32,000 nucleotides of DNA from Thermodesulfobacterium commune DSM 2178 (GTDB taxonomy: Bacteria > Desulfobacterota > Thermodesulfobacteria > Thermodesulfobacteriales > Thermodesulfobacteriaceae), in contig NZ_CP008796.1 in the NCBI RefSeq assembly GCF_000734015.1, positions 1,620,001-1,652,000 of the forward strand, in the 5' to 3' direction. Positions 5,255 through 32,000 of this stretch are shown piece after piece. The notes beneath the pieces were generated by a model. That model ran no database searches and was not told the origin of the DNA. It worked only from the letters and a program-made list of their open reading frames with translations. Every line of letters begins with the position of its first letter. The first letter of the stretch is position 1. Made by a program: the position numbers and the translations under genes.

Positions 5255-5282
5255 CTTTCCACCCTCCTAAGGTTTATCAATT

Positions 5283-17158: not shown

Positions 17159-17166
17159 GGAAAAAC

Positions 17167-18495
17167 ATGGAAGGGTTTGTAAGAAAACCGGTTTTTGATA
17201 TAGGGATAGACAAAACGATAGAACGATTAGACCAACAAAAGATTAAAAGGGCTATCGAGAGGGTTTTAAACGAAGAGGCTACGGTAAGATTTAAGATCTT
17301 TTTAGAAACTTGTATGCGCTGTGGAATGTGTTCTGAGTCTTGCCATCACTATCTTTCCCATGACAGAGACCCAAGTTATGCGCCGGCCTCAAAAGTAAAG
17401 CTCACCTTAGGAGACTTGGTTGCTAAAAAAGGCAAAATAGAAAAAGCCGATTTAAAGCGATATGCAAGGATTGCTTTTACCGAATGTAATCTTTGTCGCC
17501 GGTGTACTCAGTTTTGTCCCTTCGGTATTGATATTGCCTATTTGATCTCTTTGGTGAGAAGACTTTGTGGGGTTTTAGGGGTAGCTCCTCAGTTTATTCA
17601 GGACCAGGTCTACAGTCATATGTCTTCTTACAACATGCTCTGGTTTAAACAGGATGAGTGGATAGACACGATACAATGGATAGAAGACGAGCTAAGGTAT
17701 GAGATAAAAAATGCAAGGATCCCTCTTGGGAAAAAAGATGCAGACATTTTGTTACTTATTCATGGTCTTGAAGCTAAATACATGACTCCTTTGCTTTCTA
17801 ACATGCTTAAGATCATGCTTGTTTCAGGGGTTGATTTTACTTTACCTGACACAGACGGTTGGGATTATACCAATAAGTCTCTCTATATGCATGATTTTGA
17901 GACGATGACGTTGGTAACCAAAAGGCATTATGAAATAGCCTCTAAACTAAGGGTTAAAAGGATTTTGATTACAGAGTGCGGACATGCCTATAGAGCAGCG
18001 CTTTATGAATCAGCAAGACTTTTAGGCTGGAAAGAGGCCCCTATACCTTTTATCCATGCAGTAGAGTTTTTCTATGAGATTTTAACCCAGGGAAAGATAA
18101 AGATCGCTCATAAGGTTAAAGAAAAGGCTACCTTACAAGATCCTTGCAACATAGTGAGATACAGAGGGTTAGGACAAAAACTCAGATTTATAGTTAGGGA
18201 ACTTTGTGAAGATTTTGTGGAAATGACCCCTAATCAAGAATACAATTATTGTTGTAGTTCAGGAGGAGGGATGGTTGATGCAGGGCCTCCCTGGAAGGGG
18301 GCAAGGATAGAAGGAGGAAAAGTCAAGATAGAACAGATAAAAGAAACAGGGGCATCTTTAGTGATAGCACCTTGTCATACCTGTCATAAGGGGATAGAAG
18401 ATTTGATTGAGCACTATAAAGTAGAGGCCCATGTTAAATTTTTGGCAGACCTAATAGCAGAACATATGGAAATCCCTGAGAGGTTAAGACCTTAG
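17167..18495 (+). CDS. hmcF: HdrD/DsrK/HmcF/TmcB-family cytoplasmic FeS protein with CCG domains
   Basis: Two ferredoxin motifs (CMRCGMCSESC, CNLCRRCTQFCP). Cys-rich CCG-type regions (ECGHAYR, DPCNIVR, YCCSSGGG, APCHTCH). I chose the start at ATG 17167 (MEGFVRK) with GAGGA 5 nt upstream. The ORF-track TTG at 17155 is the alternative. Confidence 0.8.
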   Translation: MEGFVRKPVFDIGIDKTIERLDQQKIKRAIERVLNEEATVRFKIFLETCMRCGMCSESCHHYLSHDRDPSYAPASKVKLTLGDLVAKKGKIEKADLKRYARIAFTECNLCRRCTQFCPFGIDIAYLISLVRRLCGVLGVAPQFIQDQVYSHMSSYNMLWFKQDEWIDTIQWIEDELRYEIKNARIPLGKKDADILLLIHGLEAKYMTPLLSNMLKIMLVSGVDFTLPDTDGWDYTNKSLYMHDFETMTLVTKRHYEIASKLRVKRILITECGHAYRAALYESARLLGWKEAPIPFIHAVEFFYEILTQGKIKIAHKVKEKATLQDPCNIVRYRGLGQKLRFIVRELCEDFVEMTPNQEYNYCCSSGGGMVDAGPPWKGARIEGGKVKIEQIKETGASLVIAPCHTCHKGIEDLIEHYKVEAHVKFLADLIAEHMEIPERLRP

Positions 18496-18496
18496 G

Positions 18497-20107
18497 ATGA
18501 AGAAAGAAACAGTCTTGTTGATTTTAGGGTTAGGTTTGACGGTTTTATTCTGGTGCTGTTTGAGTAATCCCTTGGCTTTAACTGAACCCTTTAGAAAAGT
18601 GGAAAAAACTTTAACTCCTACAGAGGTCCAGAAAAATCTTCTTCTTATTAAACATCCTGAGGTTTTTGGGAGGTTAGAGTATGCCCCTGTTTTGTTTAAC
18701 CACCTAAAACATGTTAAGGCGTTAGAAAAAGAAGGTTGTGGGATTTGTCACCCGGTAGATAATAACAAGAATCTACGTTTTGTTTTTCCTAAGGAGTTTT
18801 TATCTGTTAAAGATCCAGAAAAGTTAAAAGACCTTTACCATCAAGCTTGCATTAAATGCCATCAACAGAAAAAGCTTGAGCAAAAACCTTATGGTCCGGT
18901 AAGACTTTCTTGTGGGGATTGCCATGTAAATATTTATGCGTACAAAGATATAAACTATCCTAAGTTTGATTTTGATTTTGTTTACCATGAAACCCATGTC
19001 AAAGAGTTAGACCAAAAATGTGAGAAGTGCCATCATACCTATGATTTAGAAGAACGTGATAAAGGGAAGGCTCTAAAATATATCAAAGGTAAAGAAGAAT
19101 CTTGCTACTATTGCCATGATTTTACTAAGAAGAAAGGTCCTGAGTTAACCAAGATATTGAAGATAGCTCAAGAAAAAAGTTTAAACCTTTCTCAGGCCTT
19201 TCATGGGTTATGTTTGAACTGTCATGTAGAATTAAAAAAGGATGGGAAAAAGGGTGGTCCGATAATCTGCAGTGATTGCCATAAAGGAGAAAAAAGGAGT
19301 TTGGAAGATCTGTCTAAAGCTCCAAGGCCAGATAGAGGACAAAAAGAGTTTTATTTGATGGAATTCCCTAAAGCTTCTAAGATGAAAGCAGTAGTGTTTA
19401 ATCACCGAATTCACCAGTTTACAGCCCAGAAATGTAGAGATTGTCATCATGAAAGACTTGAAGGGTGTCGGAATTGTCATACCTTAGAAGGTAGTCCTAA
19501 AGGGAATTTTGTAAATGCTGTCACAGCTTTTCATTCAGTATTTTCAGACAGAAGCTGCCAGGGATGTCATCAAAAGGAAATAAATGCAAGAAAAGAATGT
19601 TTAGCTTGTCATCATCTTGACAAAAAAGAAACCTCTCGCACAGAAGTTGCTTCTGAAACTACTTGTGTTAAATGCCATATAGGTAGAGCGAGGTCTGATA
19701 TTAAAAATTTAAAACCCTATTCAGGAGAGATAAAATCTCAAATAGAAATAGAGGTTTTATCCAAGGAGTTTGAAAAGGCAACCATGCCTCATCAAAAGAT
19801 AGTGAAAAGTTTGGTTGCTAAGACCTCAGGCAATAGACTTGCGGTATACTTCCATGATAAGGAAGAAACCCTGTGTAAAGGATGTCATCATAAAACGAAC
19901 CCTGAAGGGAAAATAAAAGGACAAGAGGTTAAATGCAGTTCTTGCCATGGAATAAGTTTTGATGCTTTACACCCTGAAAGGCCAAGACTACAGGCAGCTT
20001 ATCATGGACAGTGTATTAAATGCCATGAGTATTTAAAGATAGAAAAGGCTATGAGTTGTGATAGTTGCCATAAACCTAAAAAAGAGAGAGGTTTACCTAG
20101 TTTTTAG
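18497..20107 (+). CDS. hmcA: Periplasmic 16-heme high-molecular-weight cytochrome c (HmcA type), 536 aa
   Basis: I count exactly 16 CxxCH motifs: CGICH, CIKCH, CGDCH, CEKCH, CYYCH, CLNCH, CSDCH, CRDCH, CRNCH, CQGCH, CLACH, CVKCH, CKGCH, CSSCH, CIKCH, CDSCH. There are many additional distal His residues and an N-terminal signal/anchor helix. Confidence 0.9.
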   Translation: MKKETVLLILGLGLTVLFWCCLSNPLALTEPFRKVEKTLTPTEVQKNLLLIKHPEVFGRLEYAPVLFNHLKHVKALEKEGCGICHPVDNNKNLRFVFPKEFLSVKDPEKLKDLYHQACIKCHQQKKLEQKPYGPVRLSCGDCHVNIYAYKDINYPKFDFDFVYHETHVKELDQKCEKCHHTYDLEERDKGKALKYIKGKEESCYYCHDFTKKKGPELTKILKIAQEKSLNLSQAFHGLCLNCHVELKKDGKKGGPIICSDCHKGEKRSLEDLSKAPRPDRGQKEFYLMEFPKASKMKAVVFNHRIHQFTAQKCRDCHHERLEGCRNCHTLEGSPKGNFVNAVTAFHSVFSDRSCQGCHQKEINARKECLACHHLDKKETSRTEVASETTCVKCHIGRARSDIKNLKPYSGEIKSQIEIEVLSKEFEKATMPHQKIVKSLVAKTSGNRLAVYFHDKEETLCKGCHHKTNPEGKIKGQEVKCSSCHGISFDALHPERPRLQAAYHGQCIKCHEYLKIEKAMSCDSCHKPKKERGLPSF

Positions 20108-20116
20108 GGAGAAAAA

Positions 20117-20233
20117 ATGTATATATGGGAAAAACTTTTTAGTTATCATGGTGCGGAATATGTAATTTCTGGAGCCGCGTTTTTTATGTTCATCCTGCTT
20201 TTTTTATGGTTTAAGTCTAAGAAAAAGTTTTAG
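20117..20233 (+). CDS. Small single-TM peptide (38 aa), possible HmcD-like subunit; absent from the ORF track
   Basis: My translation: MYIWEKLFSYHGAEYVISGAAFFMFILLFLWFKSKKKF. GGGAG lies 6-7 nt upstream of the ATG. It fills the hmcA-hmcB gap exactly, with one hydrophobic helix followed by a basic tail. Confidence 0.4.
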   Translation: MYIWEKLFSYHGAEYVISGAAFFMFILLFLWFKSKKKF

Positions 20234-20242
20234 GAAATAGGT

Positions 20243-21202
20243 ATGAAGAGAAGGAATTTTTTGAAAGGTTTTTTGAGTTTGCCTGGGCTTTTGGGAATAG
20301 ATACTGCCTCTAAATTTATCGAAGAAGAAAGAGCTTTTAAAACCATCCATACCCAGGCCAACGCTAAAAACTGGGAGATTTACCTAAAAAGAAAAGAGAG
20401 CAAGTACGAACCTAAAGAAGGAAGTTATGGCGTACTTTTTGATGCTACTAAATGTATAGGGTGTCGTAGATGTGAATGGGCCTGTAATGAATGGAATAAA
20501 AACCCTAATCAGCCGATAGAAAATTTTGAAAGGTCAAGATTTGAAATCAATTCAGTTTTTGAAAAAATTAGAAGACCTTCTGCCGGTGCTTTTACGGTAG
20601 TAAATCGGTTTGATGTTGACGGAAAAGTTATCTATGTAAAAAAACAATGTATGCACTGTTTAGACCCAGCCTGTGCTTCTTCGTGTTTTGTTGGGGCATT
20701 TACAAGGACAGAAGAAGGGGCGGTGATCTATAATCCTACGGTATGCGTAGGATGTAGGTATTGTATGGTTGCCTGTCCTTTTGACATTCCTGCCTATGAA
20801 TACTATGACCCTTTAACCCCACAGGTTACTAAATGCACGATGTGCTTTGACAGGATGGTTGAAGGCAAAGTACCTGCCTGTGTGGCTGTTTGTTCGGCTG
20901 ATGCCTTGAAGTTTGGGAAACGGGAGGAGTTATTAAAACTTGCTTATAAATTGATTGCAGACAACCCACATAGATACTATCCTAAGGTCTATGGGGAGGA
21001 CGATTTTGGTGGGACAAGCTGGTTATATCTCTCTCCTGTTCCTTTTGAAAAGATAGGATTACCTACTGGACTTAAAAAAAGTCCGGCGGTTTATACCAGA
21101 AACTATCTTTTTGCGGTAAAGGTGTTAGAAATTTTAGCCTCCCCGGTGCTGGTCTACTTAGCTTATAAGGCTATGTCTAAGAAGGGTAAAGACGAGGAAT
21201 AA
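20243..21202 (+). CDS. hmcB: Tat-exported four-cluster FeS subunit with C-terminal TM anchor (HmcB/DsrO/NrfC/PsrB type)
   Basis: Twin-arginine leader MKRRNFLKG. Motifs CIGCRRCEWAC, CMHCLDPACASSC, CVGCRYCMVACP and CTMCFDR...CVAVC. Hydrophobic helix near the C-terminus (VLEILASPVLVYLAY). Confidence 0.85.
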   Translation: MKRRNFLKGFLSLPGLLGIDTASKFIEEERAFKTIHTQANAKNWEIYLKRKESKYEPKEGSYGVLFDATKCIGCRRCEWACNEWNKNPNQPIENFERSRFEINSVFEKIRRPSAGAFTVVNRFDVDGKVIYVKKQCMHCLDPACASSCFVGAFTRTEEGAVIYNPTVCVGCRYCMVACPFDIPAYEYYDPLTPQVTKCTMCFDRMVEGKVPACVAVCSADALKFGKREELLKLAYKLIADNPHRYYPKVYGEDDFGGTSWLYLSPVPFEKIGLPTGLKKSPAVYTRNYLFAVKVLEILASPVLVYLAYKAMSKKGKDEE

Positions 21203-21204
21203 AG

Positions 21205-22401
21205 ATGGAAAAGTTTGATTTAAAGGGATTTAAACAAAAGTTGCTCTTAGCTCCAGATTTTAAGTCTTATGTTTTTGGGCTCTTTACTCCTTGGAATGTG
21301 ATAGCAGGAATAATTTTGCTTTTTGGTTTTTACGCGATGGTTTATAGGCTTATTTTTGGCCTTGGTCCTGCGACCAACTTAAATAACGACTATCCTTGGG
21401 GGCTGTGGATAGCCTTTGACATTTTAGCAGGTATCGCCCTTGCAGCTCCTGGGTTAACCTTAGGAACTGTGGTATATCTTTTTAGACTGAAAGATTACAA
21501 GAGTTTTGCCAGACCTGCCATCCTTTCAAGCCTGTTAGGATATGTTTTTGCGGTTATAGCCCTTCTTTTTGACCTTGGAAGGTATTATCGGGTGTTTTAT
21601 CCTATCGTTTGGTCCTGGGGTTTAGAATCGGTGCTGTTTTTAGTTGGTTGGCATTTCTTTCTGTATATCATCATCTGTGTGGTTGAGTGGTTCCCTTCCT
21701 TTTTTGAATGGTTAGGGCAAGAAAGGTTGAGAAACTTCTTTTCTTCCTTGGGGATTTGGGCTACGGCTTTTGGGGTGATCATAGCCGGTGGCCATCAGTC
21801 AGCCTTAGGAGCACTTTTTTTGATAGCTCCAACCAAGCTACATCCCCTCTGGTATTCTCCTTTGTTGCCTCTGTTTTTCCTTATTACAGCAGTATTAGGT
21901 GGAATGGCTGTGGTGGTGATAGAAAGTGCGATTACCCATAGATATTTTAAACATCAGCTAAAAAGGTTTGACCAAAAGGCATTTGATAAAAAGACCCTTG
22001 GTCTTGGAAAAGCTTTGGCTGTAGTTTTGACGTTATATCTTCTTCTTAGGGGATTGGACCTGTTCCATCAAGAAAAACTACACTATATAAATTTAAGTTC
22101 TACCTATGGAGTCCTTTTTGTGTTAGAACATTTGCTTTTTGGTGTAATTCCATTGATTTTACTTTTATGGGCCGTAAAGGAAGAAAAACCTTTTTGGGTT
22201 AGGATATTGTCTTTTTGGATAGCCCTGGGGATAATAGTTAATCGTCTGATCGTCTGTTTGATTGCCTATAACTGGTATATTCCTTGGTCTCAAAAATACT
22301 ATCCCTCTTGGATGGAGGTTGCGCTTTCTCTTTCGATGGTTGTGTTAATCATCTTGTCTACCAGGTTTATGATAAGAAGACTTCCTATCCTTTCAGACTA
22401 A
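21205..22401 (+). CDS. hmcC: NrfD/PsrC/HmcC/DsrP-family integral membrane quinone-interacting subunit (398 aa)
   Basis: About ten TM helices. The gene starts 2 nt after the stop of the FeS subunit gene. Size and hydrophobicity pattern fit the NrfD family. Confidence 0.8.
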   Translation: MEKFDLKGFKQKLLLAPDFKSYVFGLFTPWNVIAGIILLFGFYAMVYRLIFGLGPATNLNNDYPWGLWIAFDILAGIALAAPGLTLGTVVYLFRLKDYKSFARPAILSSLLGYVFAVIALLFDLGRYYRVFYPIVWSWGLESVLFLVGWHFFLYIIICVVEWFPSFFEWLGQERLRNFFSSLGIWATAFGVIIAGGHQSALGALFLIAPTKLHPLWYSPLLPLFFLITAVLGGMAVVVIESAITHRYFKHQLKRFDQKAFDKKTLGLGKALAVVLTLYLLLRGLDLFHQEKLHYINLSSTYGVLFVLEHLLFGVIPLILLLWAVKEEKPFWVRILSFWIALGIIVNRLIVCLIAYNWYIPWSQKYYPSWMEVALSLSMVVLIILSTRFMIRRLPILSD

Positions 22402-22557
22402 TCGCTGTCCTTTTTGGGACAAACTTTAGTCCAAATAGGTTAATCGTTTAGGAGAAAGAGTCTTTATAGGCAAGTAAGTTTGTTTCTGTTTTTAGGCATA
22501 AATTTTGTTATTAAACTCCATAAAAACTTGGGGTAAAAAGCAGGCAGGGGAGGGCAT

Positions 22558-24645
22558 ATGAAAAAACAGGTGTTTTCTGTATGTGGGATGTGTTCTGCAA
22601 GGTGTCCTATAAGGGTTGAGGTAACAGATGGAAGGATTACCTGGATAGAGGGTAATCCCTATGCAGCTGGTATCGAGGGTTCAATGTGTGCCAGGGGCTC
22701 TGCTGGGTTGGTTCACGTATATGATTTTGAGCGTCCTCAAGGCCCTATGGTAAGGATAGGGGAGAGAGGGTCAGGAGAGTGGAAAAGGGTTTCTTGGGAT
22801 GAAGCTTTGAACTATATTGCCAACAGACTTTCTGAGATAATTGGTAAATACGGACCTAAGTCAGTGGCTCTTTTAGACCGAGGAGGTGGTCTTTTTGGAG
22901 AAATGCAAAGGGTTTTTATCAAGGCGATAGGTTCTCCTAACTATTTTAACCATGATGACCTGTGTAGAAAAGACGCAGATTTAGCACTTCAAAGTTTAAT
23001 CGGTATTCCGAGAAATCAAATAAGTTATGATTTTGCTAACGCCAGACATATAGTGTCCTTTGGTAGGGCCTTTTTTGATGCGGTGGTGGTTAAAGAGGCT
23101 AACAATGTGTTAAAAGCCTTAGAAAAGGGAGCTAAACTTACCTATTTTGACCCAAGGGTAAACGTAACTGCCACCAAGGCAACACGATACTTAAGAATCA
23201 GACCTGGGACAGACTATGCTGTAGTACTGGCTTTGATCCATCAAATTTTAAAAGAAGATTTATACGACAGGGATTTTGTAAATAAATACATGTTGGGTAT
23301 TACAGATTTAGAAGAATTTATAAAACCTTATACTCCAAAGTGGGCTGAAGCAGAGTCTGGAGTTCCTGAGTACCAAATCATAAAATTGGCAAGAGAACTT
23401 TCTGAGGCTAAGCCAAGGGTGATAATCTATCCTTACTGGTTTGGTGCAAGGTATACAGATTCTTTCTATTATGCCAGGGCAGTCTGGATATTAAACTTTT
23501 TACTTGGGAATTTGGAACAAAAAGGAGGTTTGATTTTAGCTAAATCTCCTAAAGAGGTAGGGGCTCAACCGTTAAAAAGTCTCTTAGACCCCATTCCAGC
23601 CCCTCAAGATAAACGAATTGAGGCTGAATTAGGTAAGGGATTTTTGTATGATGGAGCTGGCCATATCTTACATCTATACAAAGCGATCAAAACTGAAGAA
23701 CCCTATCCTATAAAAGCACTTTTTGTGTATAGATATGACCCCTTTGCAGGGATGCCGTTAGAAGATATTAAGGAAATCACCAGGAAACTTGAACTTTTAG
23801 TCCATATTCCTGTAGATTATGGTACTACCAGTTGGTTTGCCGATGTTATCCTTCCAGAATCAACCTATCTTGAAAGGGATGACATCATTGGTTTACAGAG
23901 AGGGGCTAAACCTGCTTTTATTTTAAGAAGGAAGGCCATCGACCCGGTTTACGATACCAAACCCAGGTGGTGGATTTTTACCCAGTTATGTAAAAAGCTT
24001 GGTTTGGAAAAATACGTCCCCTATGAAAGTATTGAGGACATCTGGAATTATCAATTAGAGGGTACAGGGATAAAAATCGAGGACTTTGAGGCTAAGGGTT
24101 TTGTTTCGCTTTGTAAGGAGCAGGTTCTTTATTCTCGGGATCAGCTAAAGTTTAAAACTCCTTCCGGAAAGATCGAAATTGTTTCTTCCAAGATGCAAGA
24201 AAGAGAGGTACCAATCTTTTATCCTTATAAAACTCCAGAGAAACCTAAGGTAGAAGAGGGAGAGTTTAGACTTATTTTTGGAAGAGCAGCCATGCATACC
24301 CATGTTAGGACCCAGAATAATCCGTTATTGAATGAAATCAAACCAGAAAACGAACTCTGGATAAACGACGAGGTAGCAGAAAGATTAGGGATAAAAGATG
24401 GGGATTGGGTAGAGGTTTCCTCAGGAGACTATACAGGAAAAATCAAGGCCAAAGTAACTCCTTTTATCCATCCTGAGGCAGTGTTTATGGTAAGAGGATA
24501 TCAAAATGACATTCCCTGGCTAAGCAGGGTTTATGGTAAAGGGCTTAACGAGGGAAGATTGCTTAAAGGAGCTTTTGATAAATTTGCATTAGGAAGCCAT
24601 ACAGGTGTTCTTTTTGAAAACTTTGTAAAAGTCAAAAAAGCTTAA
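22558..24645 (+). CDS. Cytoplasmic (Tat-less) molybdopterin (bis-MGD) oxidoreductase catalytic subunit, Psr/Phs-like, 695 aa
   Basis: The N-terminus MKKQVFSVCGMCSARCPIRVEVTDGRITWIEGNP...SMCARGSAG carries the CX2CX3C...C FS0 cluster motif in the form seen in polysulfide/thiosulfate reductase A subunits. A candidate Mo-ligand Cys sits in NHDDLCRKD. There is no RR leader. The RBS is GGGGAGGG. Confidence 0.85.
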   Translation: MKKQVFSVCGMCSARCPIRVEVTDGRITWIEGNPYAAGIEGSMCARGSAGLVHVYDFERPQGPMVRIGERGSGEWKRVSWDEALNYIANRLSEIIGKYGPKSVALLDRGGGLFGEMQRVFIKAIGSPNYFNHDDLCRKDADLALQSLIGIPRNQISYDFANARHIVSFGRAFFDAVVVKEANNVLKALEKGAKLTYFDPRVNVTATKATRYLRIRPGTDYAVVLALIHQILKEDLYDRDFVNKYMLGITDLEEFIKPYTPKWAEAESGVPEYQIIKLARELSEAKPRVIIYPYWFGARYTDSFYYARAVWILNFLLGNLEQKGGLILAKSPKEVGAQPLKSLLDPIPAPQDKRIEAELGKGFLYDGAGHILHLYKAIKTEEPYPIKALFVYRYDPFAGMPLEDIKEITRKLELLVHIPVDYGTTSWFADVILPESTYLERDDIIGLQRGAKPAFILRRKAIDPVYDTKPRWWIFTQLCKKLGLEKYVPYESIEDIWNYQLEGTGIKIEDFEAKGFVSLCKEQVLYSRDQLKFKTPSGKIEIVSSKMQEREVPIFYPYKTPEKPKVEEGEFRLIFGRAAMHTHVRTQNNPLLNEIKPENELWINDEVAERLGIKDGDWVEVSSGDYTGKIKAKVTPFIHPEAVFMVRGYQNDIPWLSRVYGKGLNEGRLLKGAFDKFALGSHTGVLFENFVKVKKA

Positions 24646-24659
24646 GAAGGAGGGGAGTT

Positions 24660-25166
24660 ATGAGCCTTTATTATATATATCAGGACCACAACAGATGTAT
24701 CGGTTGTTTTGCCTGTGAAGTTCACTGTAAAACCAACAAAGGGTTAGGCCCTGGGCCAAGGCTTTGCAGGATCATCCCAACCGAAATCAAAGCTATAAAC
24801 GAACAGGTGGTTCAACGGTTTATCTTTATGCCCTGTTTTCATTGTGAAGACCCCTGGTGTGTAAAAGCCTGCCCCACAGGAGCTATGCAGAAAAGGGCTA
24901 AAGATGGAATAGTTTTTGTAGAACCAAATCTTTGTGTTGGTTGTAAAAACTGTATCACTGCCTGTCCCTGGGGTATTCCTCAGTTTAACCCAGAGACCGG
25001 GAAAGTAGTTAAGTGTGACTATTGTAAAGACAGGATTGACCAGGGACTTTTACCTGCTTGTGTGTCTAAATGTACTACCCATGCTTTAAAATGGGTTTCA
25101 ACTCAAGAAGCTTCTACTATTAAAAGAGAAAAGTTTGTAAAGGAAGCCTATGCTAACCTCTATTAA
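24660..25166 (+). CDS. Four-[4Fe-4S] ferredoxin-type electron-transfer subunit (PsrB/HycB-like, 168 aa, no signal, no TM)
   Basis: 17 Cys residues grouped as [37 protein letters not shown] and CDYCKDR...CVSKC. RBS GAAGGAGGGG. The 3' end overlaps or abuts the nuoB start. Confidence 0.85.
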
Positions 25167-25665
25167 GATGGAAAACCCTACGGTTGAAATAGCAGACGGG
25201 GTAAAGTTGGTAAAGGGGACTGATAGTGTCCTTCTCACCACCCTTGATAAACTCATAAACTGGGGCCGGGCGAATTCGCTTTGGCCCCTTACCTTTGGGC
25301 TTGCCTGTTGTGCTATAGAGATGATGGCAGCCGGTGCCAGTCACTATGATTTTGATAGGTTAGGGGTTCTTTTTAGAGCCTCTCCTCGTCAAGCAGATTT
25401 GATGATAGTAGCCGGAACGGTTACCTATAAAATGGCTCCGATTGTGAGAAGGCTTTATGATCAGATGCCAGAGCCTAAGTTCGTTATTGCGGTAGGTAGC
25501 TGTGCCTCAACCGGAGGAATTTTTCAAACCTATAGTGTTTTGCAAGGGGTAGACCAGATCCTTCCGGTAGATGTTTACATACCTGGTTGTCCACCAAGGC
25601 CAGAGGCTTTTTTCCAGGGGATTATAAAATTACAACAAAAAATTTTAGAAGGTTATAACAAATGA
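25150..25665 (+). CDS. nuoB: NADH:quinone oxidoreductase (complex I) subunit B, N2 cluster carrier
   Basis: [16 protein letters not shown]...GSCASTGG...IPGCPPRPE is the canonical NuoB/Nqo6 signature. The start is ATG 25150 (AAGGAAG upstream, 17-nt overlap with the FeS gene) or ATG 25168. Confidence 0.9.
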
Positions 25666-26867
25666 AAGGGTATGTTTTAGAACAGATAGAACCCTCAAAG
25701 TTTGTTTTACAGATGGGTCCTCACCATCCAGCTACCCATGGAGTGTTAAAGCTTTTTTTAGAACTTGAGGGGGAAAGGGTTGCCCGCTGTAGGCCTGAGG
25801 TAGGGTATCTTCATCGAGGTATAGAAAAGCTTGCTGAGACTAAAACCTATCCTCAAGTTGTACCTTTAACCGATAGGTTAGATTACATCGCAAGCATGAT
25901 AAACAACGTAGGTTATTGTGTGGCTGTTGAGAGACTTTTAGGGATAGAGCCTCCTCCAAGAGCTAAGTTTCTCCGTACTATGGTCTGCGAATTGTCAAGG
26001 ATTAGCAATCATTTACTTTGGTTAGCTACTCATGCCCTTGATATAGGTGCGATGACAGTCTTTCTTTATTGTTTTAGAGAAAGAGAACAGATCCTCTGGT
26101 TTTTAGAAGAAATTTGCGGAGCAAGGCTTACCTTTAGTTATCCAAGAATAGGAGGAGTAAGGATTGATGTAGAAGAAAAAACCTTAGAAAAAATAGACAG
26201 GTTTATCGATGGATTTTTTCAAAAAATAGATGAATACGAGGGTTTGCTTACAGAAAACAGGATTTGGATAGCCCGTACCAGAGGGGTTGGAGTTATAAAT
26301 CCTGAAGATGCTATAGCTTATGGTCTTACAGGTCCCAGTCTTAGGGGTTCGGGAATAAACTATGATGTAAGAAAACATTTCCCTTATGACGCATACAGTG
26401 AGGTAGATTTTGAGGTCCCGGTAGGAAAACACGGAGATACCTATGATAGATATTTATGTCGTGTCCAAGAGATGAGGCAATCTGCTAAAATAGTTAAACA
26501 ATGTATTCAGAAAATGCCAGAAGGAAGTATCCTGGCAGAAAACGCTATAGAGTTAGACCTTCCCCCTTCTGGTAAAAAAAAGCTTCATCCAGAAGGTTGG
26601 TCTACCGGTGCTTTTATTTCTTTTTTAAAAGAGAAGGAACCTCTTTTACCTGAAGGGGAAATCTATTCAGCAGTAGAAGGGGCAAAAGGAGAACTTGGGT
26701 TTTTTATCATAAGTGATGGGTCAGGGAGACCTTACCGGGTAAGGATTAGGGTGCCCTCTTTTATACATATTTCAGCCATTCCTAAGCTTGCAGAGGGTCA
26801 GTTTTTGGCAGACGTGGTAGCCATCATCGGAACCCTTGATATCGTTATGGGAGAGGCTGATAAATGA
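25662..26867 (+). CDS. nuoD: Complex I subunit D (49-kDa/Nqo4), quinone-site type, not a [NiFe] hydrogenase large subunit
   Basis: [43 protein letters not shown] and C-terminal [12 protein letters not shown]. It has no RxCGxC or DPCxxC Ni-binding cysteines. ATGA overlap with nuoB. Confidence 0.9.
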
Positions 26868-27424
26868 AACAACTGTTAAAAAAGATCTTGTTGATAGACC
26901 TTATAAAAGGGCTTTTAATCACCTTAAGAACCATTTTTACCCAGCCGGTTACCATAAGATACCCCAAACAAAAAAGAGAGATCGCTCCAGGTTTTAGAGG
27001 AAGACATGCCTTAGTTAGAGACCCTGAAACAGGTAAAGAGAGATGTGTGGCCTGTTTAAGATGTGCAAGAGTTTGTCCTTCTCAGTGCATCTACATCGGA
27101 TACAAGGAAGATGAAACCTCAGGAAGAAGAGTGCTTACTAAATATGAAATTGAGGCCTTTAGATGTGTTTATTGTGGATATTGTGTAGAGGTATGCCCTG
27201 TAAATGCTATCGTCCTTACTGAGTTTTATGAGTATGCAGCATACGATAAAGAGGAAAATTACTTTACCAAAGAAAAGTTACTTCAAAACTGGGATGAGTT
27301 TTTAAGTCTTTATAAGCACCAAGAATATATAAACAAATTCTGGTATCTAAGAGGGATAGAAAGGATAAGACTTCCTTATGAAAAAAGGTTTCCTACCCCT
27401 ATCAGGATTAAAAAGGAGGGTTAG
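26864..27424 (+). CDS. nuoI: Complex I subunit I (TYKY/Nqo9), 2x[4Fe-4S]
   Basis: CVACLRCARVCPSQCI and CVYCGYCVEVCPVNAI. N-terminal amphipathic/TM segment. ATGA overlap with nuoD. Confidence 0.85.
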   Translation: MKQLLKKILLIDLIKGLLITLRTIFTQPVTIRYPKQKREIAPGFRGRHALVRDPETGKERCVACLRCARVCPSQCIYIGYKEDETSGRRVLTKYEIEAFRCVYCGYCVEVCPVNAIVLTEFYEYAAYDKEENYFTKEKLLQNWDEFLSLYKHQEYINKFWYLRGIERIRLPYEKRFPTPIRIKKEG

Positions 27425-27427
27425 CCT

Positions 27428-27811
27428 GTGACCCCAGGTACTTACTTACCGATAAAATACTTGCCTGTTTTTTTGATGTTAATTTTGGCTACCATTTTTA
27501 GTGTGGCCGCGATTTTTATAAATCAATTGCTTAGTCCAAAGAAAAAGACCGCTGTGAAACTTATGGCCTATGAATCAGGTAATTTGCCTTCAGGAGAGGT
27601 AAGAGAAAGGTTCTTCATCGGTTATTATGTGTTAGCTATCCTTTTTGTGGTGTTTGACGTGGAGTTGGTCTTTCTTTTTCCTTGGGCCTTAACCTTTAAT
27701 AGCCTTGGTTTCCTTGGTTTCTGGGGGATGCTGTTTTTTATCTTTCTTATTTTGTTAGGCTATTTTTATGAGATCAAAAAGGAGGCTTTGGAATGGTTGA
27801 AGAGATCTTAA
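27428..27811 (+). CDS. nuoA: Complex I subunit A (ND3)
   Basis: 127 aa with three TM helices and the conserved YESG...FDVE..FLFPWA pattern. GTG start with GGAGGG 7 nt upstream. Confidence 0.8.
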   Translation: MTPGTYLPIKYLPVFLMLILATIFSVAAIFINQLLSPKKKTAVKLMAYESGNLPSGEVRERFFIGYYVLAILFVVFDVELVFLFPWALTFNSLGFLGFWGMLFFIFLILLGYFYEIKKEALEWLKRS

Positions 27812-28275
27812 AGGACCTTCAACAGCAATTTAAAGAAGAAATTTTAGAGATAGGAGAGTTTAGAAAACAGAAGTTTTTGGTGGTAAAAAAAGATAAAGTA
27901 AAAGCTGTTTTAAGGTGGCTTAAAGAGAATTGGAGTTTTAACTATCTGCAAGACCTTTTTGGGGTAGATTTTTTAGGGAAGATCCCTCGTTTTGCGGTAG
28001 TTTATCAGCTTTATAGCCTTCCTAATAAGGTTCAGCTTAGGATAAAAGCCCTTATCGATGAAGAAGACCTTACCATAGACAGTGTAGTAGACCTTTGGCC
28101 TGTTGCCAACTGGTTAGAAAGGGAATGCTATGACATGTTTGGGATCGTTTTTAAAGGGCATCCAGATTTAAAAAGGATTTACATGCCAGAAGACTGGAAA
28201 GGTTATCCTTTGAGAAAAGATTATCCTGTTAAAGGGGAAGGCCCCTGGGATGGAGTAAAGGACCTAATCCGTTAG
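27793..28275 (+). CDS. nuoC: Complex I subunit C (30-kDa/Nqo5)
   Basis: LRWLKEN..F..L.DL.GVD...RF.VVYQL.S...RIK...VDLWP.ANW.ERE.YDMFGI.F.GHPDL.RI is the canonical NuoC signature. It overlaps nuoA by 19 nt. Confidence 0.85.
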   Translation: MVEEILKDLQQQFKEEILEIGEFRKQKFLVVKKDKVKAVLRWLKENWSFNYLQDLFGVDFLGKIPRFAVVYQLYSLPNKVQLRIKALIDEEDLTIDSVVDLWPVANWLERECYDMFGIVFKGHPDLKRIYMPEDWKGYPLRKDYPVKGEGPWDGVKDLIR

Positions 28276-28296
28276 ACTTAGGGAGAAGGACAAACC

Positions 28297-29310
28297 ATGG
28301 ATAGAACTTTAGATTTTTATCAGTTTGGTTTTTTGGTTTTAAAAACTGTATTTATCTTTGCTATAACCTTGGTGCATGTGGCCTTTACCACCTATGCTGA
28401 AAGAAAGATAATCGGAAGAGCTCAGGCACGTTTTGGTCCAAAAGAAGTAGGACCTCATGGTATTCTTCAGCCTTTAGCTGATTTTTTAAAAATTTTCGGA
28501 AAAGAAAACATAATCCCTCAATCTGCCTATCAACCGGTATTTAAGATAGCTCCGATCATAGTTTTTGCTTTTACCGCGGTTAATCTTACGGTCATCCCTT
28601 TTGAGCAAGGTTTTATTTTAGCAGACCTAAATGTAGGAGTTCTTTTTATTCTGGCTTCAGCCAGTTTGGCTGTATATGGAATTATCCTTGCAGGTTGGTC
28701 TTCTAACAGTAGATATTCCTTTTTAGGTGGATTAAGGGCAGCTGCTCAGGTGTTGAGTTATGAAATTGCTCTAACACTAAGCTTAGCCTCTGTAGTTCTT
28801 ATGGCAGGTTCTCTTAAGCTGAGCGATATTGTCCTTGCTCAACATAACTCACTTTTTGGTTTTTATGCCATACCTCAAATAATAGGTTTCGTAGTTTTTG
28901 TAGTTGCTGCCTTTGCTGAAACCAACAGGACCCCTTTTGACCTTCCTGAGGCAGAACCCGAGCTGGTTGCAGGGTATCTAACCGAATATAGTGCTTTTAG
29001 GTATGCCTTGTTTTTCCTCGGAGAATATACAGCTATGTATATCATGGCAAGCCTGGCAGCGCTGTGTTATTTAGGTGGATGGACCGTTCCTAAATATGTG
29101 ATGGCTATTCTTCCTTTTTTGAAGTGGATACCAGGATGGGTGTGGTTTTTGTTAAAGGTGTATCTTTTTATCTTTCTTTATATCTGGGTTAGGGCTACTT
29201 TCCCAAGATACAGGTTTGACCAGTTATTAAGTCTTGGATGGAAAGTTCTAATACCTTTGGGATTTGTGAACCTTTTTATTACCATCTTGTTTAAAAAGTT
29301 GTTTGCATAG
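28297..29310 (+). CDS. nuoH: Complex I subunit H (ND1)
   Basis: ERKIIGRAQARFGP...GILQPLAD..K...KE, then ETNRTPFDLPEAEPELVAGY.TEYS is the canonical NuoH signature. Confidence 0.9.
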   Translation: MDRTLDFYQFGFLVLKTVFIFAITLVHVAFTTYAERKIIGRAQARFGPKEVGPHGILQPLADFLKIFGKENIIPQSAYQPVFKIAPIIVFAFTAVNLTVIPFEQGFILADLNVGVLFILASASLAVYGIILAGWSSNSRYSFLGGLRAAAQVLSYEIALTLSLASVVLMAGSLKLSDIVLAQHNSLFGFYAIPQIIGFVVFVVAAFAETNRTPFDLPEAEPELVAGYLTEYSAFRYALFFLGEYTAMYIMASLAALCYLGGWTVPKYVMAILPFLKWIPGWVWFLLKVYLFIFLYIWVRATFPRYRFDQLLSLGWKVLIPLGFVNLFITILFKKLFA

Positions 29311-29319
29311 GAGAAAAGG

Positions 29320-29841
29320 ATGGTTCTACAAGGTCTTTTTCTTTATTTTGCCTTGATGATTTTAGGGACAGGGATTTTAGGTATTACTCAGAAAAATCCT
29401 GTAAAAAGTTTGCTCTGGATTTTATTAACCTTTGTGCATTTAGGAGGGTTGTATCTTTTACTTAATGCAGAATTTTTAGCGGTGGTACAGATTATAGTTT
29501 ATGCAGGGGCGATCTTGGTGATGTTTTTGTTTGTCATCTTTCTGTTAGACCTGAAAGAGGAAGAAAAAGGTGAGGTGTTTTTAAAGTCTTGGCAGTTAAG
29601 AGTTTGGGCTATTCTTTTGCTGGTGTTTTTTTTAGTAATAGGTGGTTTGAATTATAAGATTTTTTATCAAGGTCCTTATACCATAGAGTTTATAGAAAAG
29701 GAAGGACACAGTAAAGCCTTAGGCTTGGTTCTTTTTAGCGACTATGTTTATCCTCTTATTTTGTTAGGGTTTATCCTTTTAGTACCCCTTATTGGGATAG
29801 GAATTATGCTTTTTGGGAGGAAGACTAATGGTTCCTCTTAG
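29320..29841 (+). CDS. nuoJ: Complex I subunit J (ND6)
   Basis: 173 aa with five TM helices. The AEFLAVVQIIVYAGAILVMFLFVI motif is typical of NuoJ. Confidence 0.8.
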   Translation: MVLQGLFLYFALMILGTGILGITQKNPVKSLLWILLTFVHLGGLYLLLNAEFLAVVQIIVYAGAILVMFLFVIFLLDLKEEEKGEVFLKSWQLRVWAILLLVFFLVIGGLNYKIFYQGPYTIEFIEKEGHSKALGLVLFSDYVYPLILLGFILLVPLIGIGIMLFGRKTNGSS

Positions 29842-30133
29842 CTGGTATCTTATTGTAAGCTTTTGTCTTTTTGGGATAGGTCTGGTAGGTTTTCTTATCA
29901 GAAGAAACCTGATAATGTTACTTCTTTCTATAGAGATTATGCTTAATGCAGTCAATCTTTCTTTAGTGGCTTTAGGCCATTATTTACAAGACATAAGACC
30001 TCAGGTTATGGCGCTTTTTATCATAGGGTGTGCTGCTGGAGCTGTAGCTGTGGGTCTTATTCTCTTGGTTATAACCTATCGTAATAAAGCAACCTTAAAA
30101 GTAGACGAATTCAATTTATTGAGGGAAGACTAA
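29828..30133 (+). CDS. nuoK: Complex I subunit K (ND4L)
   Basis: LGFLIRRNLIMLLLSIEIMLNAVNL contains the conserved TM2 Glu. I chose the start at ATG 29828 with GGGAGG 8 nt upstream. The ORF-track TTG at 29813 is less likely. Confidence 0.85.
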   Translation: MVPLSWYLIVSFCLFGIGLVGFLIRRNLIMLLLSIEIMLNAVNLSLVALGHYLQDIRPQVMALFIIGCAAGAVAVGLILLVITYRNKATLKVDEFNLLRED

Positions 30134-30134
30134 G

Positions 30135-31616
30135 ATGGTAGTAGAAACCTCTATCACACCTTTACTCTGTGTGCTGGTTTCTCTTTTAGCTATACCCTTT
30201 ATCATCGCTACCGGAGAAAGGAATCCTAACTTAAGAGAATTCTGGTCTGTTTTGGCAGGTATAATCAAATTTATCTTGGTTTTATCGATGGTCCCTGAGG
30301 TAGTTTCAGGAAAGATTTTAGAGTTTGAAGTTTTCTCTATACTTCCTGGGATCTCTTTGAAGTTTAGAGTAGATGCGATGGGACTGCTTTTTGCCCTTGG
30401 AGCCTCATTTTTATGGATCATTACTACGTTTTATTCTATAGGATACATGAGGGGCCATCACGAACAAAAACAAACTCGATTTTATGCTTGTTTTGCTGGT
30501 GCACTTTCTTCTACCATAGGGGTTGCCTTTTCTGCCAACCTTTTTACGATGTTTTTATTTTACGAAGCCCTTACCTTTGTAACCTATCCTTTAGTGGCTC
30601 ATCATGAGACACAAGAGGCTCGAGCCGGGGCGAGAAAGTATGCCATTTATTTGATAGGTTCTGCTAAGCTGTTTTTGGTAGCAGCCATAACCATCACCTA
30701 TCTTTTAGCAGGTACCCTTGAGTTTCAAAAAGGAGGAATCTTCCCTAGCCATATAGTAGAGGCTCATCGAGGACTTTTAAGTGTACTTTTTCTTATGTAT
30801 TTTTATGGGTTTGCCAAGGCTGCTGCGATGCCTTTACATGGTTGGCTTCCTGCGGCGATGGTGGCTCCTACTCCAGTTTCTGCCCTTCTTCATGCGGTAG
30901 CGGTGGTAAAAACCGGGGTTTTTACCGTGTTAAGAACCATATTTTTTGTGTTTGGTCAAGAAACGATGAAACTTCTTTATACCACGGATTTGGCTCTTTT
31001 TATAGCAGCTTTTACCATTACCACTGCTTCGATCATTGCCCTTACCAGAGATAACTTAAAAGCAAGGCTTGCCTATTCAACCGTTAGCCAACTTTCATAC
31101 ATCTTACTCGGTGCTCTTTTGCTTACCTATCATGGTACTATCGGAAGCATTATCCATATCTCTAACCATGCCTTTGCCAAAATAACCCTCTTTTTTTGTG
31201 CTGGCTCTATCTATGTTTGTGCTCACAAAACTGAGGTTAGTCAACTCGACGGTATAGCGAAAAAACTACCTATTACCATGGCCTCTTTTACGATAGGAGC
31301 ACTTGGTATGGTAGGTATCCCTATGGTAGGAGGCTTTATTACCAAATGGTATCTCCTTCTTGGTACCATAGAAGCCCACAATTTTTGGACCTTAGTTGTC
31401 CTTCTTTCTAGTTCTTTACTTAATGCAGGCTATTTTTTTCCCATAGTTTATAGAGCTTATTTTAAGGAATATAAGGGAGAAGGGCATGAAACCCATCATC
31501 CAGTCAAAGAAAACCCTTTTATGGCTACTACCCTTTTGATTACAGCTATCATCAGCGTTATTTTAGGTCTTTATCCGGACTTTTTAATAAACCTTGCTAA
31601 GGAGGTTATTAGGTGA
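30135..31616 (+). CDS. Antiporter-like proton-translocating subunit (NuoN/NuoM/MrpD family), 493 aa
   Basis: FLFYEALTFVTYPL (TM5 Glu) and HGWLPAAMVAPTPVSALLHAVAVVKTG (TM7-8 Lys/His region) are typical of Mrp-type antiporter-like subunits. The length is too short for NuoL and I saw no obvious long lateral-helix extension. Confidence 0.85.
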   Translation: MVVETSITPLLCVLVSLLAIPFIIATGERNPNLREFWSVLAGIIKFILVLSMVPEVVSGKILEFEVFSILPGISLKFRVDAMGLLFALGASFLWIITTFYSIGYMRGHHEQKQTRFYACFAGALSSTIGVAFSANLFTMFLFYEALTFVTYPLVAHHETQEARAGARKYAIYLIGSAKLFLVAAITITYLLAGTLEFQKGGIFPSHIVEAHRGLLSVLFLMYFYGFAKAAAMPLHGWLPAAMVAPTPVSALLHAVAVVKTGVFTVLRTIFFVFGQETMKLLYTTDLALFIAAFTITTASIIALTRDNLKARLAYSTVSQLSYILLGALLLTYHGTIGSIIHISNHAFAKITLFFCAGSIYVCAHKTEVSQLDGIAKKLPITMASFTIGALGMVGIPMVGGFITKWYLLLGTIEAHNFWTLVVLLSSSLLNAGYFFPIVYRAYFKEYKGEGHETHHPVKENPFMATTLLITAIISVILGLYPDFLINLAKEVIR

Positions 31617-31762
31617 GCTTGCCTCAGGAAGATATAGCCCAAGAAAGACAAATACTAAAACATAACCCCTGGCCAGGATACAAAAGGGCATTTTACATAG
31701 TTTTTACCATTGCTGTTTTGTATTTGTTTTTCATCTTTTATCTGGGATACAGGCCTCACTAA
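31613..31762 (+). CDS. Small single-TM protein (49 aa), unknown function; absent from the ORF track
   Basis: My translation from GTG 31613 (GTGA overlap with the antiporter-like gene; AAGGAGG 7 nt upstream): MSLPQEDIAQERQILKHNPWPGYKRAFYIVFTIAVLYLFFIFYLGYRPH. Confidence 0.35.
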   Translation: MSLPQEDIAQERQILKHNPWPGYKRAFYIVFTIAVLYLFFIFYLGYRPH

Positions 31763-31776
31763 AGGGGGGTACCTTT

Positions 31777-32000
31777 ATGCAAGAAGAAAAAAAAGGTTTT
31801 TTTGATTATCAGGAAAACGTTAAGAGGTTTTTAAGAGGGTTTTATCTATTTTTGGTGCTGGTAGTTTTAATAGACCCTTTTATCCATAAACATGCTTATT
31901 TCGGTTTTGATGGTTATCCTTCTTTTTATGGAACCTTTGGTTTTGTAGCCTGTGTGTTGTTGGTGTTAGCAGCAAAGCACATTTTAAGGCCTCTGGTAAT
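31777..32000 (+). CDS. Membrane protein of unknown function, N-terminal part only (runs off the window end)
   Basis: ATG 31777 with GGGGGG 7 nt upstream: MQEEKKGFFDYQENVKRFLRGFYLFLVLVVLIDPFIHKHAYFGFDGYPSFYGTFGFVACVLLVLAAKHILRPLV... The frame is open to the edge and shows two hydrophobic helices. Confidence 0.4.
   Translation, partial: MQEEKKGFFDYQENVKRFLRGFYLFLVLVVLIDPFIHKHAYFGFDGYPSFYGTFGFVACVLLVLAAKHILRPLV

Follow-up and report, generated by a model that had tools for sequence, protein, structure and literature searches.

A gene cluster of Thermodesulfobacterium commune DSM 2178 was analysed in which a molybdopterin oxidoreductase (MoOR) without a twin-arginine translocation (Tat) leader and a four-cluster iron-sulfur (FeS) protein are encoded directly ahead of the genes of a complex I lacking NuoE, NuoF and NuoG. 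It lies in a stretch of 32,000 nucleotides, here called the window (contig NZ_CP008796.1, positions 1,620,001 to 1,652,000 of the forward strand; coordinates below count from the first letter of the window). We tentatively propose, with a confidence somewhat short of even, that the two proteins form a PhsAB-like module on a complex I devoid of its N-module, and that electrons flow through it in the reversed direction, from menaquinol to thiosulfate, driven by the proton motive force (pmf). The further-reaching version, in which MoOR physically replaces the NADH module and the whole is a four-pump, pmf-driven menaquinol:thiosulfate oxidoreductase, the missing device of reverse electron transport by which sulfate reducers and sulfur disproportionators would reduce thiosulfate in the cytoplasm with electrons of quinol level, is possible but rather doubtful. 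Judged from the genes, MoOR is probably the electron entry or exit of complex I, the system would be a variant of the modular complex I and formate hydrogenlyase (FHL) family, and the docking interpretation is supported by the available computational tests.

The linkage has already been published as a one-line genomic remark. A PsrAB-Nuo cluster (THER_0567/0568 with THER_0569-0582) was reported in Thermodesulfovibrio sp. N1 by Frank et al. 2016 (PMC5165239), who found nuoEFG absent in Thermodesulfovibrio and suggested in a single sentence, for a single genus, that proton transfer is coupled to the redox chemistry of sulfur compounds. That cluster is orthologous to ours (locus L017; such labels denote the loci compared here): its MoOR is 70% identical and its genes are ordered alike; the paper holds no survey, no discrimination of PhsA from PsrA and no biochemistry. 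An earlier note on the window, written from its letters alone, had known of no biochemical characterisation of such a complex. Our limited literature search likewise brought up no report in which a PhsAB-Nuo complex was purified, assayed for activity or solved in structure, but the linkage and the coupling idea had been anticipated in PMC5165239. New here are the breadth over three phyla and two architectures, the conserved gene overlap, the affinity to PhsA, an NAD(P)H partner, a variant with NuoD and NuoI only, the four-pump arm and the link to existing proteomic data; the value of the analysis lies in the breadth, the PhsA affinity and the testability.

The system bears on the source or sink of electrons in the many complex I enzymes without NuoEFG, and on how electrons are raised to the very low potential required for thiosulfate cleavage in respiration and disproportionation. 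The PhsAB-like/complex I unit is a concrete, purifiable candidate for both questions, and it is carried by cultivated thermophiles (Thermodesulfobacterium thermophilum, T. hveragerdense, Thermodesulfovibrio species, Thermodesulfitimonas autotrophica and probably Desulfolithobacter dissulfuricans). If the proposal is true, the modular logic of complex I, FHL, membrane-bound hydrogenase (MBH) and the likewise membrane-bound sulfane reductase (MBS) would extend to a sulfur-compound molybdoenzyme, this would be the first complex I with a sulfur-compound enzyme as its dedicated redox partner, the Q- and P-modules would be a general docking platform for catalytic dimers of the type known as complex iron-sulfur molybdoenzyme (CISM), and estimates of the energy yield of sulfur disproportionation would change.

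The molybdoenzyme and the complex I genes behind it

All genes of the cluster are on the + strand. The MoOR gene (22558..24645) encodes a Tat-less, PhsA-like bis-molybdopterin guanine dinucleotide (Mo/W) oxidoreductase of 695 amino acids, and the FeS gene (24660..25166) a soluble protein of 168 amino acids with four [4Fe-4S] motifs of the PsrB/DmsB/HycB type, both assigned by Pfam and NCBIfam. They are followed by nuoB (25150..25665, alternative start 25168; NuoB 253 bits, above cut-off), nuoD (25662..26867; NuoD 519 bits), nuoI (26864..27424; two CxxCxxCxxxCP motifs for the two [4Fe-4S] clusters N6a/N6b, by NCBIfam and sequence) and, by their Pfam matches, nuoA (27428..27811), nuoC (27793..28275), nuoH (28297..29310), nuoJ (29320..29841) and nuoK (29828..30133). 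The next gene (30135..31616) encodes a first MrpD-like antiporter subunit of 493 amino acids. For nuoK the ATG at 29828, which gives a protein of 101 amino acids like the orthologue in locus L001, is the more likely start by comparison of sequences over the TTG at 29813, where the longest open reading frame (ORF) begins. The genes overlap by 4 nt (B/D), 4 nt (D/I), 19 nt (A/C) and 14-29 nt (J/K), or are separated by 3 nt (I/A), 21 nt (C/H), 9 nt (H/J) and 1 nt (K/antiporter-like gene). The Pfam and NCBIfam scans agree on all family assignments in the cluster.

These data bear out the description in the earlier note, which had named a Psr/Phs-type enzyme of 695 residues without a twin-arginine leader, a four-cluster protein of 168 residues after it, and nuoD, I, A, C, H, J, K with an antiporter-like gene in tight succession. 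It had also stated that nuoE, nuoF and nuoG are missing; according to the ORF list and the family scans none of the three is present inside the cluster, nor in any orthologous cluster examined. The window thus holds the core of the Q- and P-modules (the eight genes nuoA, B, C, D, H, I, J and K with one antiporter-like gene) and not a canonical 14-subunit NADH:quinone oxidoreductase. In this gene content the cluster is like the 11-subunit complex I (cyanobacterial NDH-1, Fpo, Desulfitobacterium Nuo), where nuoEFG are absent as well. Those enzymes use diffusible ferredoxin or FpoF, whereas here a redox enzyme is encoded ahead of nuo, apparently in translational coupling with it, and two MrpD-like subunits replace NuoL.

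NuoD is truly of the quinone type. Its scores are 423 bits with mouse NDUFS2, 370 with Thermus Nqo4, 217 with MbsL and 118 with HycE. It has retained the quinone-site histidine (His26, in HPATHG) and tyrosine (Tyr75, in DRLDY), and the cysteine motifs that bind Ni in the large subunit of NiFe hydrogenases are absent; these residues are as the earlier note had read them. The four ligand cysteines of cluster N2 (CC...C...C) can be read from the sequence of NuoB.

The operon continues beyond the end of the window, and its remainder was read from two related loci (L005 17578-21241 and L170 14492-21016). Behind the first MrpD-like gene the window encodes a single-transmembrane protein of 49 amino acids (31613..31762), conserved in this type of nuo cluster, with 44-aa orthologues and no Pfam match, and the start of a membrane protein (31779..32000) which is 83 amino acids long in the 99%-identical T. 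thermophilum genome. In that genome (L005) the 83-aa gene precedes a second MrpD-like subunit of 592 amino acids with an HL-like C-terminus, and in Thermodesulfovibrio aggregans (L170) the second MrpD-like subunit is followed by NuoM and NuoN. The first antiporter-like subunit matches PRK08375 at 650 bits and the second PRK12668 at 746 bits, above the cut-off; an exact look-up of the MrpD-like protein of the window gave no entry. As read from these sequences, the membrane arm is made up of four antiporter-like subunits: NuoM and NuoN are joined by two MrpD-like proteins that substitute for NuoL. The same set, including the HL-like C-terminal extension of the second MrpD-like subunit, is known from the 'Green' or '2M' complex I (PMC9040806), though the likeness of the MrpD-like subunits is one of profile scores and descriptions; Green complex I has a NuoG (PMC4967309), whereas our cluster has neither NuoG nor any other part of an N-module. 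The two small membrane proteins between the MrpD-like genes are conserved (44-49 and 78-88 amino acids) and belong to no Pfam family.

The 16 cysteines of the FeS protein fall into four cluster motifs, and a hydrophobic segment is lacking; among solved structures the protein matches PsrB (2VPW_B, E 7e-27) and HycB (7Z0S_B, E 1.6e-13). Its gene stands directly after MoOR in 76 of 83 loci. At the junction with nuoB (25140..25166) an AAGGA Shine-Dalgarno motif and the nuoB ATG at 25150 lie within the last codons of the FeS gene. The earlier note had left the choice between this overlap and the start at 25168 undecided. When 13 loci from Thermodesulfobacterium, Thermodesulfovibrio and Thermodesulfitimonas were compared, the ATG at -17, the AAGGA and the 17-nt overlap turned out to be kept in 12 of them, across three phyla; the overlap therefore stands, the start at 25150 is better supported by the sequences than 25168, and the conservation argues for translational coupling of the FeS gene and nuoB. 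A C-terminal tail of about 25 residues in the FeS protein was also considered as a mark of docking; it is present in all Nuo-linked forms and also in many NAD(P)H-linked or stand-alone forms, and so is not diagnostic.

MoOR has the Pfam domains Molybdop_Fe4S4, Molybdopterin and Molydop_binding, all above cut-off, which place it in the MopB/DMSO-reductase superfamily. Among solved structures the one nearest to it in sequence is PsrA, a subunit of the Thermus polysulfide reductase (2VPW, 404 bits), and the AlphaFold2 model (pLDDT 89) has its best fold match in the same chain (2VPW_A, TM-score 0.90, 33% identity). Cys173, the Mo ligand of PsrA, is aligned to Cys136, the predicted Mo ligand of MoOR. 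His145 and Arg332 of PsrA, which reportedly (2008 structure paper) have roles beside the Mo ligand, correspond to Arg108 and Trp294, and so the residues are not those of the PsrA type. Within the Tat-less clade to which MoOR belongs, Cys136 and Arg108 are invariant (87 of 87 members), Trp294 is found in 86 of 87, and the cysteines of cluster FS0 are conserved.

The affinity is with PhsA instead. The best-scoring NCBIfam model is PhsA (NF012032), and MoOR displays the active-site pattern [R/K]108-H132-C136-[W/H]294 as R, H, C and W. The PhsA equivalogs among the distant relatives (P0254, P0264 and P0288), which were drawn from a search of 1.84 billion cluster representatives, carry the same pattern ([R/K]-H-C-P-[W/H]), the representatives of the Thermus-type PsrA carry H-P-C-x-R and form a separate clade, and the Tat-less representatives carry R-H-C-x-W-R, in which R298 is specific to their clade. 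In a neighbour-joining tree (without support values) the Tat-less clade is located beside the PhsA equivalogs and apart from the PsrA type. Two checks suggested in the earlier note, phylogenetic placement and alignment of the Mo ligand, thus gave a PhsA-neighbouring clade and Cys136; of its PsrA/PhsA label the Psr/Phs family stood, and signature and tree put the enzyme on the PhsA side, not with Thermus PsrA. On sequence grounds MoOR is best called PhsA-like, nearer to PhsA than to PsrA. It is not regarded as a PhsA equivalog because it scores 540 bits where the cut-off is 694 (proteins passing the cut-off reach 998-1058 bits), has no Tat leader and is not accompanied by PhsC.

The absence of the leader follows from the PhsA profile match, which begins only at profile position 41, with 8 residues ahead of the first FS0 cysteine (motif CGMCSARCP; cysteines C9, C12, C16 and C44) and no RR motif in the N-terminus; the Tat leaders of PhsA equivalogs comprise 44-50 residues. 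All 87 members of the clade lack it, whatever their neighbouring genes, and MoOR is accordingly predicted to face the cytoplasm. No dedicated anchor of the PhsC or NrfD type is encoded after the FeS gene in the window, and, in line with the earlier note, the sole NrfD-type gene (21205-22401) is no anchor for MoOR: it encodes HmcC, which was rejected for this role since its partners are an HmcB exported by Tat and an HmcA with 16 haems, and since MoOR-nuo loci outside Thermodesulfobacterium show no adjacent HmcC-like gene. A formate dehydrogenase identity was also rejected, as the corresponding models score far lower and residue 137, beside Cys136, is not a conserved histidine. One member of the Tat-less clade (P0247, a representative of 921 amino acids) has a C-terminal extension of about 215 residues and may be a MoOR-FeS fusion.

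Distribution of the linkage

Ten MoOR homologues were aligned and one genome per species was scanned. The ORFs of 80 MoOR loci were classified by BLASTP against the proteins of the window, and 73 informative loci were left after removal of those at contig ends. In 43 of these 73 species-level loci nuo follows directly after MoOR-FeS, and altogether the linkage was seen in at least 45 species of anaerobic sulfur bacteria belonging to Thermodesulfobacteriota, Nitrospirota and Bacillota. The nearest loci are those of T. thermophilum DSM 1276 (99% identity) and T. hveragerdense (97%). Two nuo orders occur: B-D-I-A-C-H-J-K-MrpD-like in Thermodesulfobacterium, Thermodesulfovibrio and many metagenome-assembled genomes (MAGs) of Nitrospirota, and the canonical A-B-C-D-H-I-J-K-L... 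in Desulfobulbaceae, Desulfocapsaceae and other Desulfobacterota MAGs. The synteny on which the earlier note had made its proposal depend is therefore kept across three phyla.

A reciprocal search gave the same picture. NuoD homologues were chosen blind to their gene context and the neighbours were looked up afterwards: all four homologues of 68-70% identity (Thermodesulfitimonas autotrophica of the Bacillota, Caldimicrobium, a JGI metagenome contig and T. aggregans) have MoOR-FeS upstream of nuoB. A locus from Nitrospirota whose NuoD is 63% identical has the order MoOR-FeS-NuoD-NuoI followed by NAD(P)H-type modules, with nuoB and the membrane genes not adjacent. The homologue of 60% identity belongs to a usual nuoA-N operon, which includes nuoEFG but lacks MoOR. 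To gauge the background, 80 metagenomic nuo loci with NuoD 49-59% identical were taken from a scan seeded with the NuoD alignment; among the matches listed, none of the 80 had MoOR upstream, the only hits being NuoG-like ones at 23-25% identity, which argues that the arrangement is not a chance adjacency. Furthermore, the pairwise identities of MoOR and NuoD correlate with r = 0.96 over 36 Nuo-linked loci, as closely as those of NuoD and NuoH, although the shared phylogeny of the species contributes to this value. The conserved overlap and the co-divergence of MoOR and NuoD fit a single inherited unit, as far as sequences can tell.

In some Nitrospirota (L168 5369-15583; L037 10001-14383; L029 and L030) NuoD and NuoI stay beside MoOR-FeS while the rest of nuo is not adjacent. 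In L168 there follow another FeS protein of the PsrB-like kind, a Pyr_redox_2 flavoprotein, a Fer2/Fer4 protein, a GltD-like subunit for NAD(P)H and an LMWPc gene. In some Desulfobacterota (L054, L063, L080 and L075) a second, paralogous MoOR-FeS pair was noticed, with 45-47% identity and an FeS protein of only 150 amino acids; in the first three it stands in tandem directly upstream of the MoOR-FeS-nuoA cluster.

Proposed electron flow and its alternatives

In FHL-1 (7Z0S) FdhF passes electrons to HycB, which is seated on the NuoI homologue HycF. By analogy, MoOR and the four-cluster FeS subunit would take the place of NuoEFG on the cytoplasmic side of complex I, with the FeS protein docked on NuoI as HycB is on HycF, and the electron chain would consist of Mo, FS0, the four [4Fe-4S] clusters, N6a/N6b, N2 and menaquinone. 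It is the FeS-NuoI interface that is pointed to, because NuoD and NuoI persist beside MoOR-FeS where the remaining nuo genes do not. The FHL-like architecture suggested in the earlier note is a reasonable analogy, the FeS protein being homologous to HycB as well as PsrB, and NuoI to HycF. Like E. coli FHL-1 (7Z0S/7Z0T), the system combines a cytoplasmic, Tat-less MopB enzyme, an HycB-type FeS protein and NuoI-, NuoB- and NuoD-like subunits with a complex-I-type membrane module, the homology being detectable for the FeS subunit, NuoI and NuoD, and the present system being known from its genes alone. The differences are a quinone-type NuoD instead of the NiFe hydrogenase, a PhsA-like enzyme instead of FdhF, and a full membrane arm with four antiporter-like subunits.

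According to the older physiological literature, thiosulfate disproportionation depends on reverse electron transport, which the proposed complex would supply, and the thiosulfate reduction by Salmonella PhsABC is reportedly driven by the pmf. The proposed complex would most likely cleave cytoplasmic thiosulfate reductively, giving sulfite and sulfide, and would run 'in reverse' so that protons moving inward would lift the electrons of menaquinol to the Mo site. This direction is suggested because the potential of the thiosulfate/(HS- + HSO3-) couple is about -402 mV and that of menaquinone about -74 mV (PMC13490349). As computed from these potentials, menaquinol-driven thiosulfate reduction would cost about 63 kJ per two electrons, and a reversed complex I would supply at 150 mV 58 kJ with 4 H+ or 72 kJ with 5 H+; a fourth antiporter-like subunit fits this energy requirement. 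A passage of PMC13490349, citing Stoffels 2012, gives menaquinol-driven thiosulfate reduction as the physiological function of PhsABC. With the Salmonella-type PhsABC (NF012032) our system would share the endergonic electron transfer from menaquinol to thiosulfate, in addition to the best-scoring curated family, the basic residue 108, His132, Cys136 and the aromatic residue 294, the neighbouring position in the tree and a four-cluster FeS subunit encoded next. Beyond the short N-terminus, the cytoplasmic location, the missing PhsC and the score below the cut-off, it differs from PhsABC in Arg298 and residue 137, and in having complex I as partner instead of a dihaem or NrfD-type subunit. The Thermus PsrABC (2VPW) is alike in structure, Mo-ligand cysteine and FeS subunit, but PsrA is periplasmic, Tat-dependent and bound to an NrfD anchor, and its His145 and Arg332 are Arg and Trp in MoOR.

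Published proteomes provide some further indications. The consecutive genes GF1_30490 (PhsA-1, 701 aa), 30500 (PhsB-1, 168 aa) and 30510-30540 (NuoA-D) of Desulfolithobacter dissulfuricans appear, from gene order, numbers and protein sizes, to be an equivalent cluster, and all six proteins were higher, or detected only, under thiosulfate disproportionation (PMC9751629 and its supplement). The authors remarked that this Phs has no C subunit and did not connect the Phs and Nuo sets. In Dissulfuribacter thermophilus a cytoplasmic PhsAB-like pair was among the most increased proteins under the same condition (PMC13490349). The docking, thiosulfate as the substrate, the direction of electron flow and the H+/e- stoichiometry are all inferences.

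Several observations weigh against the proposal. The binding of MoOR-FeS to Nuo is deduced at the level of sequence, no Nuo-specific docking signature was found in the FeS subunit, and in T. aggregans (L170 4650-9495) an insertion of about 4.3 kb lies exactly at the FeS/nuoB junction. In about 17 loci MoOR-FeS is accompanied, instead of nuo, by an NAD(P)H-oxidoreductase module that pairs a [2Fe-2S]/[4Fe-4S] protein with an NAD(P)H flavoprotein of the NuoF-C-terminal/GltD-like kind, and in the remaining loci, including those of the closest Thermodesulfobacteriaceae relatives (L007-L010), MoOR-FeS stands alone. MoOR does not reach the PhsA cut-off, and thiosulfate reduction by the Tat-less clade is deduced from the rises of related proteins on thiosulfate. 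The Desulfobulbia-type clusters have an apparently normal L/M/N arm, so the extra pump is not needed for the linkage, and the genome may carry nuoEFG at another place, as that of Desulfurobacterium does. Finally, the PhsAB-like genes of Dissulfuribacter are not adjacent to nuo, and its Nuo falls on thiosulfate disproportionation (PMC13490349). Since the MoOR tree of Nitrospirota has Nuo-linked forms scattered among NAD(P)H-linked ones and the lack of a Tat leader is common to the whole clade, MoOR-FeS is best seen, on this comparative evidence, as a portable cytoplasmic catalytic dimer plugged into differing electron-transfer modules. The earlier note had argued for docking from the loss of the Tat signal together with the linkage to nuoB; the part resting on linkage is upheld by synteny, overlap and co-divergence, and the part resting on Tat loss falls, being a trait of the whole clade.

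Most of these objections are also the strength of an explanation without any stable supercomplex, in which a soluble cytoplasmic thiosulfate or sulfane reductase shares no more than a transcript with an 11-subunit complex I that depends on ferredoxin, the link being a diffusible carrier (ferredoxin) or merely a shared regulon. A complex I without EFG is generally thought to accept ferredoxin and requires an alternative input partner (PMC11238625), MoOR-FeS occurs alone or with the NAD(P)H module in many genomes, the FeS subunit is without a docking signature, and in Dissulfuribacter the PhsAB-like pair is unlinked to nuo and oppositely regulated. Nevertheless we consider this explanation unlikely, if still worth reckoning with: in the linked loci MoOR-FeS is always directly 5' of the first nuo gene in both nuo orders, the start/stop overlap is conserved, the NuoD-NuoI pair is kept beside MoOR-FeS without other nuo genes, no ferredoxin gene is found inside the cluster by the ORF list, and all NuoD relatives of at least 63% identity that were looked up had MoOR-FeS upstream, even though a mobile element now stands between in T. 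aggregans. Another alternative is a complex of the same build running forward, as an energy-conserving sulfite or sulfide dehydrogenase. Its substrate would be sulfite, which it would oxidise to sulfate (about -516 mV) or condense with sulfide to thiosulfate, and it would reduce menaquinone and pump protons. Complex I is reversible, the potential gap to menaquinone would match that of NADH, with the alternative NAD(P)H module a sulfite-dependent reduction of NAD(P)+ would be exergonic, and MoOR has a TauE/SafE 'sulfite exporter'-family permease pair beside it in most Nitrospirota, in Bacillota and in Caldimicrobium. SoeA, the known sulfite dehydrogenase of the cytoplasm, is a much larger protein than MoOR, no SoeA-type family is among the NCBIfam matches of MoOR, and the active-site signature and the tree position are those of PhsA reductases. 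Disproportionators have a 'sulfite oxidoreductase' activity to which no gene has been assigned (PMC9751629), but a related cytoplasmic PhsAB-like pair was raised on thiosulfate and not on sulfite plus H2 (PMC13490349), and forward operation seems to us rather improbable.

If the complex does form, its substrate could also be sulfane sulfur, as polysulfide or a persulfide on a carrier (TusA, DsrC), or else tetrathionate, selenite or arsenate. The best solved structural match is a polysulfide reductase, MoOR remains under the PhsA equivalog cut-off, R298 is a peculiarity of its clade, and the clusters of the NAD(P)H type come with an LMWPc (ArsC-like) gene. The replacement of PsrA His145 by Arg and Arg332 by Trp, in agreement with the PhsA equivalogs, does not favour such a substrate; moreover acceptors of high potential would need no complex I, and the proteomic response is to thiosulfate, so that we give these substrates only a small chance. 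It is very improbable that MoOR is a catalytically dead subunit with a structural or electron-transfer function. NuoG, which contains a degenerate MopB domain, is the precedent, but in MoOR the FS0 cysteines, Cys136 and the active-site residues around it do not vary among 87 sequences, neither of the MGD-binding domains is impaired, and the same protein is found without Nuo.

Flanking genes and related loci

Upstream of MoOR, in the same orientation, the window contains a hybrid Tmc/Hmc operon (16493-22401, +) with genes for a TmcC-like and a TmcB-like protein, the 16-haem HmcA, the Tat-exported HmcB and the NrfD-type HmcC (21205-22401). This adjacency to MoOR was seen only in Thermodesulfobacterium (L005, L006). 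The 156-nt intergenic region between hmcC and MoOR (22402..22557, +, from the ORF list) is the presumed promoter region of the operon; a scan for sigma-70 promoters and terminators in and around the operon gave no signal above chance, and no Rfam family, such as the Moco riboswitch, was matched there.

In the NAD(P)H context (L004 4864-11254; L047, L051, L055 and L168) MoOR-FeS is followed by a [2Fe-2S]/[4Fe-4S] protein of 264 amino acids and then by an NADH_4Fe-4S/Fer4_20/Pyr_redox_2 flavoprotein of 650 amino acids, and the clusters often end with LMWPc (an ArsC-like phosphatase) and a PPDK_N/PEP-utilising protein of 1060 amino acids. The TauE/SafE-family permease flanking MoOR in Nitrospirota, Bacillota and Caldimicrobium is split into a pair (L001 8322-9982; L165 1728-3329; L166 1435-3047; L170 874-2534), consisting of a protein of about 420 amino acids with a signal peptide and a large extracytoplasmic domain, and a partner of about 129 amino acids. 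Its position makes it a candidate transporter of the substrate or product of MoOR; no such pair was detected by tblastn in the window. The insertion at the FeS/nuoB junction of T. aggregans consists of a transposase fragment and hypothetical genes and has left an FeS gene shortened to 163 amino acids, a natural disruption of the coupling.

Further upstream, on the - strand, a periplasmic FdnG-type formate dehydrogenase with the Tat leader SRRNFLK is encoded (8883-11924); it contains an in-frame TGA at 11358-11360 ('HQARI*HSATV') and would thus be a selenocysteine enzyme. It is followed by an FdnH-like FeS subunit (8095-8823) and FdhE (7214-8005). The region 1715-7214 (-) encodes a fusion protein of 643 amino acids, in which MoeA is joined to a periplasmic-binding-protein-like domain (the MoeA-like gene at 5283-7214), and two consecutive pairs, each of a PaaK-like phenylacetate-CoA ligase gene and an ACT-domain gene.

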